Source of the DNA: Thiotrichaceae bacterium
Lineage (GTDB): Bacteria > Pseudomonadota > Gammaproteobacteria > SZUA-140
Direction: 5' to 3'
Assembly (NCBI GenBank): GCA_002401765.2
Contig: NVTY02000080.1
Coordinates: 1-24,000 of the forward strand
DNA: 24,000 nucleotides
Part shown: positions 283 through 8,184 of the stretch, in pieces
Position numbering within the stretch: position 1 is the first letter of the stretch
Layout of the letters: every line of letters starts with the position of its first letter
Notes under the pieces: model-generated
Told to the model about the DNA's origin: nothing
Database searches by the model: none
The model's input: only the letters and a program-made list of their open reading frames with translations
Position numbers and translations under genes: made by a program

Positions 283-2185
<1,903 letters not shown>

Positions 2186-2575
2186 TTTTGTTGGCTTAGG
2201 GTCGCGCGGTACAGATTAGGTATAATTATATTAACTTCAATAGGTTACGTTAGATTAGCTTAGTTTTGAAAAACTGAGCACTGTTCCGCAAGTGTACCGC
2301 GGTACAGGTGATTTTTATGGGGGTAAATTTGGCGTGTTGCCAGTGGCAACACCCTCGTAACTGATATCTTCCACAACCAATCTTTCGATTTGCGTGCTTT
2401 TGCGCTGCTAACACTTTTCAGAGCCACTCAATCAATTACCCATCAATCAATTAAAAGTCCAGCCATAGAGATTTTTGTCTTTTTAGTACTCTTTATGTTC
2501 AAATCATATTTTTAGCTGCTAAAAGTACTGTCGAAGTGCAGGCTCGATGAAACGGATGCAACATAAGCAATCAGT

Positions 2576-3138
2576 ATGAAGTGGAGACCATTTGAATATC
2601 AGGGGGCTACTTATAACCTGTCACACCTGGATCCTTTTTATTGGCGCTACACTGCTGAGGCAGGCGGGAAACGCCCAGAGTGTACTTATAAGTTTCAAGT
2701 CAGTTTCTCTATGCACTGTTTTACTAGAAAGGCGCTGTCCAGCGAGACGATAGGCGATGGGCTGTGGTATACGGGGCCAAAAGAGAGCCGCGTTTTCTGC
2801 GTTGATCGCTATGCTTTTTCCACCCAACTCCCAGATATCGTCCGAAGCATGGGAGAGCGGCCCTGTTGGCACACTCACCATGGGAATTTTTTTACCATCG
2901 AATTGACTACCCAGGAGGAAAGGGTGGTTGAATATGAGATCTACTTTGATGTCACCAAAGCTAGCAGAAAAGGATGGTTAAACCTGATCCTCGAAAGCGC
3001 TTATGAACGAACAGATGCTTATGCAACCACGCAACCACGCAACCTAGAAAACGAAAAATCCGTCTGGATGTTATCGCTTACAATCGACAGGTAGGAAAGA
3101 AAATAAAACCGGGAGGGTCACGGACGCGCATAAAATAA
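2576..3138 (+). pseudogene. Conserved hypothetical island protein, frameshifted by an 8-bp tandem duplication
   Basis: The 172-aa ORF runs 2576-3094. The unit gcaaccac occurs 2.75 times at 3023-3044. Deleting one unit changes the tail to ATTQPRKRKIRLDVIAYNRQVGKKIKPGGSRTRIK, ending at TAA 3136-3138, which overlaps the first base pairs of the terminator hairpin (3137-3160). Confidence 0.65.
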
Positions 3139-3160
3139 AGCCCGCTCAAAGGCGGGCTTT
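3137..3160 (+). terminator. Hairpin terminator downstream of the restored 2576 gene
   Basis: aaagcccgc (3137-3145) pairs perfectly with gcgggcttt (3152-3160) across a 6-nt loop. The T run is short (3 nt), so efficiency is uncertain. Confidence 0.5.
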
Positions 3161-4044
3161 CCGGGACTCTTTGAATATCCCCAGACCTGCTAGAGACCTG
3201 TCACCAGGCGGTACAACCACACTGCCTAAGCAGCTCCGTTCATATGGTTGCATTAATAGTATCGGCTTTTAGGCCGAAAATGTAAATAGTAAAAAAGGTA
3301 TTAACATACTGCAACCGAGACAGGCAAAAGAAAGACAAAATAATATAACCCATTGTAATACAACAACATAAACACTTAACCTCTAATTCTAACTGCATTA
3401 GATTGCATCTGGTGGTTAGGTGGAGATTAATCTCCCCTTCCGGGCGCAGTCATCAGGGGAGATATATTCAGCAGCAAGCACTATACTACCCCCTGCCAAA
3501 ACCGTTATCGCTGCGGTCAATCAGCGATACCCTTGTCGAGCAATCGACTCCCAGCACCTCGCAGACCCAGTCCAGTTTGGTTCAGGTGCGACAGCCATCA
3601 GGCTGTGGGTTATGCCTTAACTTTATCTATTAAGACTATCGGTGTTAGCACCGAGCACTTTCACGCCTGATCACTTTGATCAATCCACATCACTGCACCA
3701 GTTTTTCTGTTGCAGCATCAAAAAGCGTGCGCCAAGCGTTGGCCCGTCTTTGCTGGTGGCGCGCAGCGCCTCCACAGAGACGGGCGGCATGAAACTGGCG
3801 CAACGTCTTATCAATAGAGGCTTTTTCGGTTTTCATCACCGATGCAAAAGCCTGCAACCCCCTGAATGCGGCGGCAGATTTCTGATCTGTGACAGCCAGT
3901 ACCTTACCTGCGATCTGCGCAATGCAGACCGTGCAGAGGTGCCATGCATTCAGGCTTTAACTGCCCTGCTGTCGGTAATAGACAGCCCCAGGGTCACGGG
4001 CAAGTGACCACGGCGCGACCGGCGCTTAATCCGGTTTAACACTC

Positions 4045-4208
4045 AAGGAACCTCTGATTAATTCTGGGCGGATAGCTATGAGCCAAAAATGTCCAACTGC
4101 TGTGTTGCTAATCTTAGCAATAGTCCCGCTATTACTTGCGATTAGCGCCTTGCATTTGAAAATTTTTCATCTCATATCTATCCGCCCAGAATTAATCAAA
4201 GGCTCCTT
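4045..4208. repeat. 164-bp inverted-repeat element (38-bp arms, 88-bp spacer), MITE-like or large cruciform
   Basis: Arm 4045-4082 pairs with 4171-4208 with 3 mismatches. The perfect 21-bp core is tgattaattctgggcggatag (4055-4075) against ctatccgcccagaattaatca (4178-4198). Confidence 0.7.
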
Positions 4209-4222
4209 AGCAGCATCAGGGT

Positions 4223-4930
4223 ATGGCGGTGAGTTATGCGCAAAACCTGCTCTCATCGGTGAATGTGATCCTGGAGACGATGCGGGGGGATTCACTGCTG
4301 CGGGTCTCACCCGCTGAGCGGGTGGGTGAACGCAGCCACGTGCGCCATGAGGCTCCAATGGGGTTGGCACGGGAGCGGCTGCAACATGCGACCTCTAATC
4401 TGCACCATCGAGGGGAGCCGCGTGTCGCAGCCGTGGCGGAACTCACTCGGGAACTGGGGCTGCGTTTTCGTGAGGCCTCGCTGCTCGATGCCCGCAGCGC
4501 ACTGCAACAGGCCGAGCATCGGGGTGCGGTGAATATTACGGCGGGGACTAAAGGGGGTCGAGGCCATCTGGTAGATCGCTGGGTGCCGGTCACATCACAG
4601 GCCACAGCAGCACTGCAAAGGGCGGCCGAGCTACAGGGAAACGGTCGGAACCTGATCCCTGATGGGAGCCGCTACAGCCAGTGGCGTGACCACGCCTATC
4701 ACGCCTGGTCGAAGGTCGCCCCAGATGCTGAGTTAAAGGGCTTTCATGACCTGCGTGCCGCTTACGCCTGTGAGCGATATGAACAACTGACCGGCCACCC
4801 TGCACCGGTGGTGGCGGGTGAAAGGGAAACGGCAAAGGGGGAAGATCAGAAGGCACGAGCGGTGATCTCCGCTGAGCTGGGCCACGGCCGGGTCGATGTC
4901 GTGGCGGCCTATCTGGGCAGCGGCCGCTGA
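4223..4930 (+). CDS. Tyrosine-recombinase catalytic-domain protein (integrase-domain family), probably 5'-truncated
   Basis: Catalytic-type motifs appear in order: GLRFREA (Arg), TKGGRGHLVDRWVPV (Lys), FHDLRAAYA (H-x-x-R), LGHGRVDVVAAYLG (His, Tyr). The frame opens only at TAG 4208-4210, at the edge of the inverted-repeat element. No N-terminal core-binding domain is readable upstream. Confidence 0.6.
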   Translation: MAVSYAQNLLSSVNVILETMRGDSLLRVSPAERVGERSHVRHEAPMGLARERLQHATSNLHHRGEPRVAAVAELTRELGLRFREASLLDARSALQQAEHRGAVNITAGTKGGRGHLVDRWVPVTSQATAALQRAAELQGNGRNLIPDGSRYSQWRDHAYHAWSKVAPDAELKGFHDLRAAYACERYEQLTGHPAPVVAGERETAKGEDQKARAVISAELGHGRVDVVAAYLGSGR

Positions 4931-5304
4931 TGGCGACGCCAGCTAATCAGCAGCAGGCGGCACGCATTGCGCGTGACTTGCTGGTGCGACGTCTACCCGG
5001 CTCACGCCGAGGCTCGGTACACGCCCATCTGCAACGGGCGCAGTTGATCGCTGAGGTTATCTGGCGGCGCTGGCAGGTGGGGCCGTATCAATGGCAGGTG
5101 AAACACTTGCGCTGGTATCTGGTGGAGAAGACCGCGCATTTAACACCGGGTACCCGTTATCGTCATTGGCTCACCGTGCGGGTTTTAGTGTCCGCACTGC
5201 GGACAACCGAGCACTGGCTTCCTCAGTTGCAGGGGCCGTGGTTAAGGCCGACGGGGGTGGCGGGTAAATTGAATGTGGGGCGGCCGGTGAAGCGGCCTTG
5301 TTAA
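4930..5304 (+). CDS. Hypothetical protein, translationally coupled to the integrase-domain gene
   Basis: The 124-aa ORF starts in a TGATG overlap (stop 4928-4930, start 4930-4932). It is basic and Trp/Arg-rich. No family was recognised. Confidence 0.45.
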   Translation: MATPANQQQAARIARDLLVRRLPGSRRGSVHAHLQRAQLIAEVIWRRWQVGPYQWQVKHLRWYLVEKTAHLTPGTRYRHWLTVRVLVSALRTTEHWLPQLQGPWLRPTGVAGKLNVGRPVKRPC

Positions 5305-5482
5305 GGTGTAGTATCTTTGAATATTCAGGTTCTCTTTTTAATGGTCGGTGTGTCGCGAAAGCAGTCGCTCGAAGCTGGCCATTGGGTTTCTGACGAGTCC
5401 AAATTTTTTTCAAATATTCTAAGCGTGTAACTTGATGATTGTCAGGATATAATTCAGTTTTGTTAATGTTAAGATGGATGTC

Positions 5483-5565
5483 CGGCTAAGCTCGTCCGGC
5501 TAAGCTCGGCTAAGCTTTAAGATGGGTGTCCGGCTAAGCTACGGCTAAGCTGCTACGGCTAAGCT
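5483..5565 (+). repeat. Iteron family 1: six copies of CGGCTAAGCT in two clusters of three
   Basis: Copies lie at 5483-5492, 5497-5506, 5507-5516, 5531-5540, 5542-5551 and 5556-5565. Each cluster begins with a 24-bp unit, ttaagatggRtgtccggctaagct (5469-5492 and 5517-5540, 1 mismatch, 48-bp period). Confidence 0.9.
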
Positions 5566-5623
5566 ACCTTATATGCGTAAAACAACCACCTCTTATGCGT
5601 AGATCCTGCCACCTTATATGCGT
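5566..5623 (+). repeat. Iteron family 2: three copies of ACCT(T/C)(A/T)TATGCGT at 22-23 bp spacing
   Basis: The copies are accttatatgcgt at 5566-5578, acctcttatgcgt at 5588-5600 and accttatatgcgt at 5611-5623. The spacing is about two helical turns, as in classical iterons. Confidence 0.85.
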
Positions 5624-5647
5624 GGATAACTCCATTAACTAACAGGC

Positions 5648-6517
5648 TTATCCACCGTTGCGCAGATAGCAGCTGAGATCCTTCGGCGGGATATGGGTCG
5701 GACTGGGAAAAAGCCTAACCCCGCATTGAACAACCACAAATCGTGCCTGCGGGTAAAACAGCCCGACACGCGCCAGTGCACTGCGGAAGCGATCCCTGAA
5801 ATGGGCATCACGCTGGTAGCTGTTACCGAACTGCACCATCAACTCCCCCCAGGGGATGGTGACCGGCCGCTTCAAACTATAAAAACGATAAGTCAGCCAG
5901 CAGTAGATATCCATCGCTAATGGATAATGGCCACAGGCGTGCAGCACCCGCAGATCGACCGGGATCGCACTCTGCTGAGTATGCTGAAAAAACTCATCAC
6001 TCAACACCAGTCGAGACTGCCAGCGAAACGGAGAGGCGGGCTGCCACAGCAGTGAGGCTGACTGTGCAACGCGCAATGAGGCGATATCCCACCGCTGCTC
6101 ACTGCGCTCAGTCACCTGAATCGTACAGCTTAACAGCCGCTTCAACTGCTCACGTGCGTAAGTCAGCGAACCATTCCTGCCGCCGGTACTCGCCTTGCCC
6201 ATAAGATTAAGAAAGTCGGCCGTACTCGGCCCCAGTGAAACAACACGGCTCTGGCACTGTTTACTCAATGTGGTGATCGCACAGAGCGCCAGGCGCGGCA
6301 TCGCCCCATAAGGAAGACCTACCTCACGACTCGCCAGCATCGTAAGCGTGCGGTTACCATTGCGGCGGATGAACTCATTCTCCCGAGGCTTACTAACCGG
6401 CAGCGAGGTCGTCGCCATCAGGCGCGGAATAAAAGCGATCTGCTTCGACTCCAGCGCACTGCACTGTTTGATCTGCTCCGCAATATCGATGAGATAGGCG
6501 GCAGTGCGTTTCTTCAT
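5648..6517 (-). CDS. repA: Plasmid-type replication initiator RepA
   Basis: The 289-aa ORF contains GLPYGAMPRLALCAITT, TGGRNGSLTYAREQLKRLLSCTI and a C-terminal YCWLTYRF region. From memory these match the plasmid-encoded RepA family. The reading frame is intact and iterons lie immediately adjacent. Confidence 0.75.
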   Translation of the reverse strand: MKKRTAAYLIDIAEQIKQCSALESKQIAFIPRLMATTSLPVSKPRENEFIRRNGNRTLTMLASREVGLPYGAMPRLALCAITTLSKQCQSRVVSLGPSTADFLNLMGKASTGGRNGSLTYAREQLKRLLSCTIQVTERSEQRWDIASLRVAQSASLLWQPASPFRWQSRLVLSDEFFQHTQQSAIPVDLRVLHACGHYPLAMDIYCWLTYRFYSLKRPVTIPWGELMVQFGNSYQRDAHFRDRFRSALARVGLFYPQARFVVVQCGVRLFPSPTHIPPKDLSCYLRNGG

Positions 6518-6633
6518 TGTCTCACTTTACGAACCCACTCAAACTGAGCTGTCATTGTTCGGTATCTACGCTAATAAAATGAACACTGAAAGGCAGCAGT
6601 AAATTGGAACGCGAATAATAGCGATCTCTTCCA

Positions 6634-6882
6634 TTAGAGATCCGCAGCAGAGATGATGGCGGCAACATCAGAGGCAGGATAATAGACCCGCCGCCCGATG
6701 CGCCTGGCGCACTCTTTCAGCGCCTGTGTCTTTGAGTCGCAAGGATAACAAAGGCTATAACGCAGCCCGCCTGCCGAACGCCCTAGCAGCTGCGCCAGCT
6801 GATCCTGTGAAAGTAGTGGGCCATAGAGTCCTGTGATCTTATTCTCAAGCAGTGAGCCGTTGGCATTGTCAGTATCTCGCAT
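6634..6882 (-). CDS. Small HTH DNA-binding protein (excisionase / AlpA / PrtN-like)
   Basis: The 82-aa ORF has LLSQDQLAQLLGRSAGGLRYSL ... IGRRVYYPASDVAAII, the pattern of MerR-superfamily excisionase-type HTH proteins. It lies between int and repA on the same strand. Confidence 0.55.
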   Translation of the reverse strand: MRDTDNANGSLLENKITGLYGPLLSQDQLAQLLGRSAGGLRYSLCYPCDSKTQALKECARRIGRRVYYPASDVAAIISAADL

Positions 6883-6974: not shown

Positions 6975-8020
6975 TTAAATGTTACCCTGGTGAGACTGTA
7001 GCTGATCCAGCCGACTAACAAGATCTTCGGCACGCAGATGGGTATAGCGTCGCAACATCTGCATCGACTTGTGGCCGGAGATCGCCGCCACCTCCTGATC
7101 ACCAAGCCCCATCTCAACCAAACGAGAAACGGCCTCATGGCGCAGGTCGTGAAAGCGCAACCCATCGATACCCGCATCCTTTATGGTTCGATGCCAGGCA
7201 GGGCGGAATTCATAGGGGCGACGCTTGCCATCCCGACCCGGTTCGCCCCAAAAAATAAGGTGGGTATCCAGAGGGCGAATAGGATGATTTAACACTTCAC
7301 GAAATACCGCCGTGGCCTCACGGGTCAACGGCACCATTCGTGCTGAACCGTTTTTGGTATCGCTGAGTAGCACTGTCCGCTTCGATAGATTCACCTGATC
7401 ACGCGAGAGTGATTTGATCTCACCGGCACGCATACCCGTGTGGAGTGCAATACGTACGATCCATCCCAGCATAGGGTTGGAGTGCTGGTTACAGGCCTTG
7501 AACAACTTCGCCTCTTCACCCTCAGTTAATCGTCGGTCACGCCCTTTGGCTGGCGGATATTGGCAACCGGATTGTAAAACAACCCCACACGCCACTCTTT
7601 AATTGCAATGGTAAACATATGTGAAAGCAACGAAAGTTCCAGACGAACCGTACTGGCGGATTTGCCTTCGTTCAACCGCTTGTCACGGTACTCCGCCACC
7701 AGATCCGGTGTGATTGCCCCCAGACTATAACTGCCCAGCGCCGCCTTAAGCGCCTTAGCTTTGTGACGTTCTGCAGAGGCAGTACTGGCCTTCTTGGTTG
7801 AAGAGACTTCATTCAGATAGCGGTCTATCGCTTTCTTAAGAAGCAGGCGGTCAGCGCTCGCCCGGTCGATGTAGACACCGCGTACCATCTCATCCTCGGT
7901 ACGTCTTGCCCAGTCCTGAGCATCACGTTTGGTGCGGAAAGTTTTGATCGTGGTGGGCCACCCGCGCTTGCGAATAATCGCCTTCCAGGTAGCCGATGGG
8001 GTCTTTGCAATCGTTGCCAT
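6975..8020 (-). pseudogene. int: Tyrosine integrase (phage-integrase family), frameshifted
   Basis: The N-terminal part (ORF 7526-8068) has its likely start at ATG 8020, preceded by GGAGG. The C-terminal part (ORF 6975-7595) has ALHTGMRAGE, HDLRHEA and RRYTHL. The frames join as NPVANIRQPKG / RDRRLTEGEE if one base is added at the ccc/ttt run 7542-7547. Confidence 0.85.
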
Positions 8021-8108
8021 TTTGCACCTCCAGAACGAGTAGTGCACTGAAAGTGTACCGCATGACACGGGGACTAAAAAGCAGGAGAGGGTAACTTATT
8101 GAATTTAT

Positions 8109-8184
<76 letters not shown>

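Follow-up and report, generated by a model that had tools for sequence, protein, structure and literature searches.

The first 24,000 nucleotides of contig NVTY02000080.1 (hereafter the window; assembly GCA_002401765.2, Thiotrichaceae bacterium) contain a ~6-kb island integrated at a tRNA-Phe gene, in which the replication initiator gene repA is followed by a compact region of short direct repeats. Two repeat families adjoin one another there: family 2, a set of three 15-nt iterons near the end of repA, and family 1, a cluster of six copies of the 10-mer CGGCTAAGCT. Our preferred interpretation, to which we assign a probability of about 0.75, is that this region is an ordinary iteron origin of the kind found in Salmonella genomic island 1 (SGI1), whose distal half has been replaced by the stuttered, gene-less end of a Y1 transposon, and that family 1 is this end.

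On this interpretation, the stretch would be the origin of an integrated SGI1-like replicon module, which runs from the tRNA-Phe through the integrase gene (int), a small helix-turn-helix (HTH) gene and repA to the origin of replication (oriV), and of which only the repA-proximal part of the origin survives. RepA would bind the three remaining 15-nt iterons, which are two helical turns apart, and host DnaA would bind a box that overlaps iteron 1. Ancestrally, the array would have run on into iterons 4 and 5, an AT-rich stretch for unwinding and one or two additional DnaA boxes. The whole interval between iteron 3 and the stop codon of the neighbouring gene would then have given way to ~260 bp from the gene-less end of an HUH/Y1 single-strand-DNA transposon. 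Family 1 would represent that end, with a leader carrying ATGG(A/G)TGTC and with CGGCTAAGCT as its outermost 10 nt, and this tip would have undergone re-copying on two scales, with three copies at 10-14 bp and two at 48 bp. Such a stutter could be produced at the transposase cleavage site if the HUH enzyme cuts and rejoins the DNA repeatedly, or if slippage occurs there.

The repA-proximal iterons and the breakpoint

Family 2 consists of three 15-nt units, all on the minus strand: iteron 1, ACGCATATAAGGTGG, at 5609-5623; iteron 2, ACGCATAAGAGGTGG, at 5586-5600; and iteron 3, ACGCATATAAGGTAg, at 5564-5578, the last base of which is already foreign. Their spacings of 22 and 23 bp agree with an earlier reading of this DNA, made from the sequence only, which had described three repeats at 22-23-bp intervals. 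We compared the DNA after the repA stop codon in L005, L009, L001, G005:C98, L011/L012, L062 and L002 (RepA identity 81-65%), and also in L063 (RepA 47%), L064 (42%) and a relic in a same-genus genome, G002:C53. Four to five ACGCATANNNGGTGG-type units at intervals of 21-23 bp follow the repA stop directly in nine relatives, which range from G002:C53 (91% DNA identity) down to 42% RepA identity, and iteron 1 occupies the same place in all nine. Family 2 has what would be expected of an SGI1-like oriV, namely three or more direct repeats, spaced by roughly two turns of the helix and conserved together with the initiator. In L002, all five units read CGGTGG instead of AGGTGG, a concerted change within one array. 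Judged by this conservation, the RepA_C-type repA has its iterons in family 2, which is retained with RepA in every relative examined, and both the conservation and the SGI1 precedent suggest that RepA binds the window's units.

The DnaA box TTATCCACG lies on the repA strand (minus) at 5621-5629, where it overlaps the first bases of iteron 1, and matches the consensus at eight of nine positions. A second DnaA-box-like 9-mer, TTATCCACC (5648-5656, plus strand), overlaps the repA stop codon and is of uncertain significance. Two facing 8-of-9 boxes had been proposed from the sequence, the second across the repA stop; both exist as described, except that the first had been placed one base away from its correct position. 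Because 8-of-9 matches are not rare in the window (4 observed versus 4.8 expected), only conservation can lend support to such sites. A box overlapping iteron 1 is found in eight of the nine relatives and is perfect in L001, L069 and L064, so a conserved DnaA box lies inside the origin, as in an SGI1-like oriV. The counterpart of 5648-5656 matches at 8/9 in the G002:C53 relic and at 9/9 in L064, the relative with 42% RepA identity, and at 7/9 or worse in six closer relatives (...GTGAATAA or worse); this site could be an ancient feature that some lineages have kept and others lost, or it could simply reflect the coding sequence in which it lies. Further out, all nine relatives have at least one distal TGTGGATAA-type DnaA box (one or two), and the closer ones have an AT-rich stretch. 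The proposal of an iteron-type origin beside repA therefore holds for family 2 and the box at 5621-5629, which are conserved in relatives. The G002:C53 relic shows the opposite decay, with the origin kept (five iterons, an AT-rich stretch and a DnaA box) and repA lost; in L071 (G002:C53:110187-110306 and downstream), the last ~40 codons of the nearest repA are joined to an apparent integrase N-terminal region.

In the window, this shared layout breaks off at iteron 3. Relative to G002:C53, the nearest lineage, identity is 90.8% over 207 aligned bases from the 3' end of repA through iteron 3 and 33.8% beyond, whereas G002:C53 and G005:C98 are still 64% identical to each other past this point, where both retain the AT-rich stretch and a DnaA box in addition to iterons 4-5. 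The breakpoint falls directly after ...AAGGTA of iteron 3 (window 5565/5564), and homology to the relatives resumes at 5304, the stop codon of a conserved 124-aa open reading frame (ORF). Because identity stops past iteron 3 and resumes at 5304, we conclude that the segment 5305-5565 (plus strand) replaced ~256 bp of ancestral origin, standing in place of iterons 4-5, the AT-rich stretch and the distal DnaA boxes. No distal TGTGGATAA-type DnaA box occurs within 5305-5565, and foreign DNA lies past iteron 3 where the ancestral layout has its AT-rich unwinding element and distal DnaA boxes. This arrangement is not an assembly artefact, since an independent metagenome contig, L015, reproduces window positions 5037-6785 with one mismatch (at 6028).

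Most of the foreign segment can be followed to other loci. A gene-less arm at 5346-5468 (plus strand), which includes the AT-rich stretch 5395-5470 (72% A+T), leads to the transposon-type end. Positions 5346-5493 are 89% identical to G002:C30:4170-4312, an unrelated locus beside a TraG_N gene, and 69% identical to G005:C8; the arm is also present in G001:C199 and in the metagenome locus L067. Arm and end stand together at unrelated loci in three same-genus genomes and one metagenome contig, and two of these show a re-copied 10-mer as well. A blastn-short search of the window's own 3.39-Mb assembly found no second copy of the arm or of 5300-5350. The left edge of the segment (5305-5377) reads TTAATGG tcgg TGTGTC, followed by GCGAAAGCAGTC and GCTCGAAGC, a sequence that G002:C30 and G005:C8 share in part; this edge could represent an earlier end motif, now degenerate, that points the same way and carries a decayed stutter of its own.

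Family 1 and the stuttered ends of Y1 elements

There are exactly six copies of CGGCTAAGCT, starting at 5483, 5497, 5507, 5531, 5542 and 5556, which form two triplets across 5483-5565, each headed by one of two near-identical 14-nt leaders. End copy A (5469-5516, plus strand) comprises the leader TTAAGATGGATGTC and the first three 10-mers; end copy B (5517-5565, plus strand) comprises the leader TTAAGATGGGTGTC and the other three, the last of which adjoins iteron 3. The 24-nt units at 5469-5492 and 5517-5540, 48 bp apart, are identical at 23 of 24 positions, in keeping with the earlier description of six copies in two triplets with near-identical 24-bp heads. The 48-bp duplication seen in that reading is also real; it is not, however, a duplicated origin leader and instead represents one of two scales at which an end was re-copied.

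Several properties set family 1 apart from a second iteron or partition family. Its unit spacings (14, 10, 24, 11 and 14 bp) lack regular helical phasing, and it is not shared by relatives that have the same RepA and neighbours. Both CGGCTAAGCT and the leader motif ATGGNTGTC are absent from 17 relative loci fetched by a RepA search, direct reading of the origins at two additional same-genus loci likewise shows no family 1, and the nearest relic, G002:C53, does not have it. A comparison of origins had been suggested as the way to see which repeat family varies together with RepA; in the comparison made here, family 2 co-occurs with RepA in the relatives, and family 1 is absent from them. In the 3.39-Mb assembly, the six copies of CGGCTAAGCT are the only ones, where ~6.5 scattered copies would be expected by chance. 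Leader and 10-mer occur together in G001, G005 and the metagenome locus L067, and the 10-mer is again re-copied in G001:C237, G005:C110 and L067. A metagenome scan for the 20-nt end returned three loci, of which L067 alone is related; the other two look like chance.

The genome contains a source of similar ends. A ~330-aa protein with HUH (SNHYHVV) and Y-x3-NP (YVDLNP) motifs is encoded by at least eight full-length and many partial gene copies, often at contig ends, which are 65-92% mutually identical (tblastn). It matches the NCBIfam model REP_Tyr_transpos (E=2e-11) and, weakly, Pfam Y1_Tnp, both below the curated cut-offs. Inverted ends that terminate in [ACT]TGG[ACG]TGTC bracket each gene copy, ~80 bp before the start and ~200 bp after the stop. 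The window's leaders end in ATGG(A/G)TGTC (ATGGATGTC and ATGGGTGTC), which conforms to the motif found at 22 gene-adjacent ends. At 12 of these 22 ends, the 8-mer after ...TGTC is found again within 70 nt, compared with 584 of 198,906 random genome positions (0.29%), and both window copies show the same re-copying of ~10 nt after the motif. Because stutter is a trait of this element family, the window's triplets and its 48-bp duplication can be understood as stutter at 10-14 bp and at 48 bp.

The same behaviour is widespread in this genome. Dozens of sites read T[AT][AT]N ATGG[GA]TGTC and then continue with a different short unit in tandem at each. The re-copied unit often takes in part of the end itself, as it does in the window, where CGTC precedes the second 10-mer. 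Two-scale stutter is seen at C79, at C68, at C9:3650-3900 and at a solo end in C29. Within the subfamily ...GATGGGTGTC, the next 10 nt loosely follow YNGNTAAGYT (for example, TGGATAAGTT, TCGATAAGCT and TGGTTAAGCT), and because these nucleotides share a loose consensus, CGGCTAAGCT appears to be the outermost part of the end and not target DNA. The homologous ends in G002, G005, G001 and L067 are gene-less, like the window's own.

Some individual ends deserve description. At the solo end G000:C29:1930-2010, ATGGCTGTC C is followed by six copies of the 8-mer unit AGGTAAGC, and at the solo end G000:C9:3650-3900 the leader TATAAGTATTGTGTC is followed by about eight CCGGATACC units. Across the genome, 68 intervals of 100 bp contain a 10-mer repeated at least three times, a count made in 50-bp steps in which arrays are counted more than once. 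In L038 (G005:C110), positions 1010-6118 hold a 5-kb cyanate-utilisation cassette, encoding an NMT1_2 binding protein, a permease, an ABC ATPase, cyanase and a DUF1348 protein, which has inverted copies of the same end (TTAAGATGGGTGTCCGGCTAA...) on either side and stands directly after a Y1 gene fragment (residues 4-124); this cassette may be a passenger-carrying element bounded by Y1-type ends.

Other identities for family 1 were considered and dropped. A promoter with a small RNA was set aside after a consensus scan gave only weak matches, all on the minus strand, and an Rfam search of 5200-5700 returned a chance-level match only. The repeats do not resemble the arrayed transposase sites of Tn7-, Tn402- or Mu-type elements, as TGT does not stand at the terminus and no DDE gene accompanies it, nor a Xer/pdif-like recombination site, as there is no dyad and no similarity to dif. 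The ATG of the leader was rejected as the start of a tiny leader peptide, given that it has no ribosome-binding site and that the stops vary.

Competing explanations and the state of the origin

Several observations weigh against replacement of the distal origin by a Y1 end, or against its consequences for function. There is no Y1 transposase gene by the window's copy (none near 5400; tblastn, contig C65), and no full-length element with ends exactly ...TGTC CGGCTAAGCT was found; what links this end to the Y1 family is therefore the terminal motif and the stutter that they have in common. The window's arm also shows no detectable similarity to the arms of this genome's gene-bearing copies, and no source was found for the ~40 bp at 5305-5345. 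The foreign segment (261 bp) and its ancestral counterpart (~256 bp in L009) are nearly equal in length. Finally, three iterons, a DnaA box and the AT-rich stretch 5395-5470 at a distance of 95 bp might still allow some initiation, and pSC101-type origins function with three iterons.

The last points bear on an alternative in which the module was exchanged with its function kept, the foreign 260 bp providing a new unwinding region (5395-5470) and the origin still firing after the island excises. We regard this as unlikely, though far from negligible. The 72% A+T of that stretch, the intact state of repA, the HTH gene and the three iterons, and the nearly ancestral length of the replaced segment all speak for it; however, 95 bp of GC-richer repeats separate the AT-rich stretch from the iterons, the distal DnaA boxes conserved in nine relatives are all gone, and the presence of the integrase in two frames makes excision unlikely. 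What remains in the window is three iterons and one conserved DnaA box, with the AT-rich stretch displaced behind the repeats, and on balance we favour the view that the origin is inactive or badly impaired. Such a state would fit the split integrase and the truncated Integrase_1 gene of the island.

A composite origin with two functional iteron families is far harder to defend. In that scheme, the HTH protein or the Integrase_1-domain protein would bind family 1 for copy control, partition or resolution, and the clustering of six perfect copies right beside the iterons, together with the lack of the 10-mer elsewhere in the genome, would be its mark. By contrast, all relatives with the same HTH, RepA, 124-aa and Integrase_1 module lack family 1, its spacing is irregular, the same leader and 10-mer stand at loci without repA in other genomes, and genome-wide end stutter explains the pattern. 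We consider this scheme very improbable and abandon the sequence-only proposal of family 1 as a second iteron, copy-control or partition-like family, given its absence from relatives, its irregular spacing, its position within a foreign segment of ~260 bp and its Y1-end pattern; we do not infer that it binds RepA or any other island protein. Replication slippage alone can expand short tandem units, and family 1 could in principle be a slipped-strand minisatellite formed in place with no link to a transposon. We give this explanation hardly any credence, as the units are headed twice by the 9-nt Y1 terminal motif, the arm, leader and 10-mer recur at unrelated loci in other genomes, and family 1 sits in DNA that is foreign to the origin.

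If a Y1 end did replace the distal origin, its choice of site can be the subject of speculation. The end could have landed here because the unwinding element of an iteron origin becomes single-stranded at initiation, with single-strand-DNA transposons homing to plasmid-type origins and the two-scale stutter being the footprint of cutting and rejoining, with cleavage ~10 nt past ATGGNTGTC. We think that this is probably not the case, but if it were true, it would establish the ends of TnpA-Y1 subclass 2.3 elements and the register in which they are cleaved.

The island family and its known counterparts

The island is bounded by 48-nt direct repeats at 2112-2159 and 8106-8153, and the tRNA-Phe gene that serves as integration site lies at 8109-8184 (minus strand). 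Outward from the tRNA, the order is split tyrosine integrase, 82-aa HTH gene, repA, repeat region, 124-aa ORF and Integrase_1 gene. The integrase (6975-8068, minus strand) occupies two overlapping frames, with its Phage_integrase and Int_N/SAM-like domains on separate ORFs (6975-7595 and 7526-8068). The small HTH gene upstream of repA (6634-6882, minus strand) encodes an AlpA/Xis-like protein with a weak HTH_17 match. The repA gene itself (5648-6517, minus strand) encodes a 289-aa replication initiator of the RepA_C family (Pfam PF04796, E=3e-22), which gives the origin the adjacent RepA_C initiator gene expected beside an SGI1-like oriV; it has 197 homologues, almost all of ~289 aa. Both remaining genes converge on the repeat region. 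The 124-aa ORF, conserved in this island family (4930-5304, plus strand), forms with its stop codon the other edge of the replaced segment and is intact, with 88% identity over its full length to the L009 homologue. The Integrase_1-domain gene (4223-4930, plus strand; Pfam PF12835) lacks its first 81 codons and aligns to residues 82-316 of a 316-aa relative.

Relatives share a module that consists of an HTH gene (75-94 aa) preceding repA, a ~340-bp spacer, the 124-aa ORF and a 316-aa Integrase_1 gene, and the gene order around the 124-aa ORF is the same in L005, L009, L011 and L062. In L063 (2600-3867) and L064 (1328-2586), with RepA identities of 42-47%, a type IV secretion system (T4SS) coupling-protein gene (T4SS-DNA_transf/TraG-D_C) follows the origin in place of the 124-aa/Integrase_1 pair. 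Megablast of 5300-6600 against plasmids and Escherichia coli genomes gave no match, neither RepA nor the Y1 protein has a sequence match among solved structures, and RepA, the HTH protein, the 124-aa ORF and the Integrase_1 protein are all without an NCBIfam model. No iteron-like operator was found upstream of repA or of the HTH gene.

SGI1 is the closest functional reference. Its rep gene is of the RepA_C type, with oriV immediately downstream; this oriV combines a DnaA box with four 17-bp iterons, whose consensus ends in ...ATTATGCG, and replication is lost when it is deleted (Huguet et al. 2020, PMC7433901). Like SGI1, the window carries an integrative island with int, a small Xis-type gene and a RepA_C (PF04796) initiator, with oriV directly after the rep gene, iterons that share a ...TTATGCG core, and a DnaA box. 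The two differ in that the window's family has 15-nt units at 22 bp, five of them ancestrally, whereas SGI1 has four GC-rich 17-bp units; in that the window's island sits at tRNA-Phe and SGI1 at trmE; and in that int, the HTH gene and repA here all share one direction, and the origin is truncated. Classical iteron plasmid origins, such as those of pPS10, RK2, pSC101, F and R6K, also have direct repeats at two helical turns by the rep gene, and the ancestral layout inferred here resembles them in its DnaA box and AT-rich unwinding element. By contrast, the initiator here is of the RepA_C type with no sequence match to a solved structure, and the window lacks the unwinding element and the distal DnaA boxes.

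For the Y1 protein, the published classes offer a partial match. According to Quentin et al. 2018 (PMC6006769), TnpA-Y1 subclass 2.3 proteins have a median length of 325 aa, occur in more than five diverged copies in each genome and lack REP structures; in Di Nocera et al. 2013 (PMC3733652), TIRYT or 'TIRtron' genes are flanked by terminal inverted repeats (TIRs). The ~330-aa protein fits the description of subclass 2.3 (TIRYT-like) in its features (331 aa, Y-x3-NP, multi-copy, diverged). Shared features are a Y1/HUH protein of ~325-331 aa with Y-x3-NP, more than five diverged copies, no REP hairpins and inverted repeats flanking the gene; the ATGGNTGTC ends and the terminal re-copying of ~10 nt do not appear in the consulted passages of either paper, the TIR consensus given there (GGGGWSAS) is unlike the ends here, and the window's copy is gene-less. 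REP/BIME-RAYT systems (REPtrons) similarly combine a (semi-)domesticated Y1 enzyme with gene-less end sequences that are scattered and often clustered, but the ends in this genome have no GTAG-tagged palindrome and consist of a conserved 9-mer and a variable 10-mer in tandem instead of hairpins.

For annotation, this case cautions that perfect short repeats beside iterons should not be called a second iteron family without comparison of relatives. More broadly, comparing the relatives shows what makes up the origin conserved across a widespread, unstudied family of RepA_C islands: a DnaA box over iteron 1, four to five iterons, an AT-rich stretch and, distally, one or two further DnaA boxes. 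The window shows a probable route by which such integrated replicons can be silenced. The genome also supplies at least 22 ends of a little-studied class of Y1 transposases, over half of them stuttered, as a data set for locating the site of cleavage.

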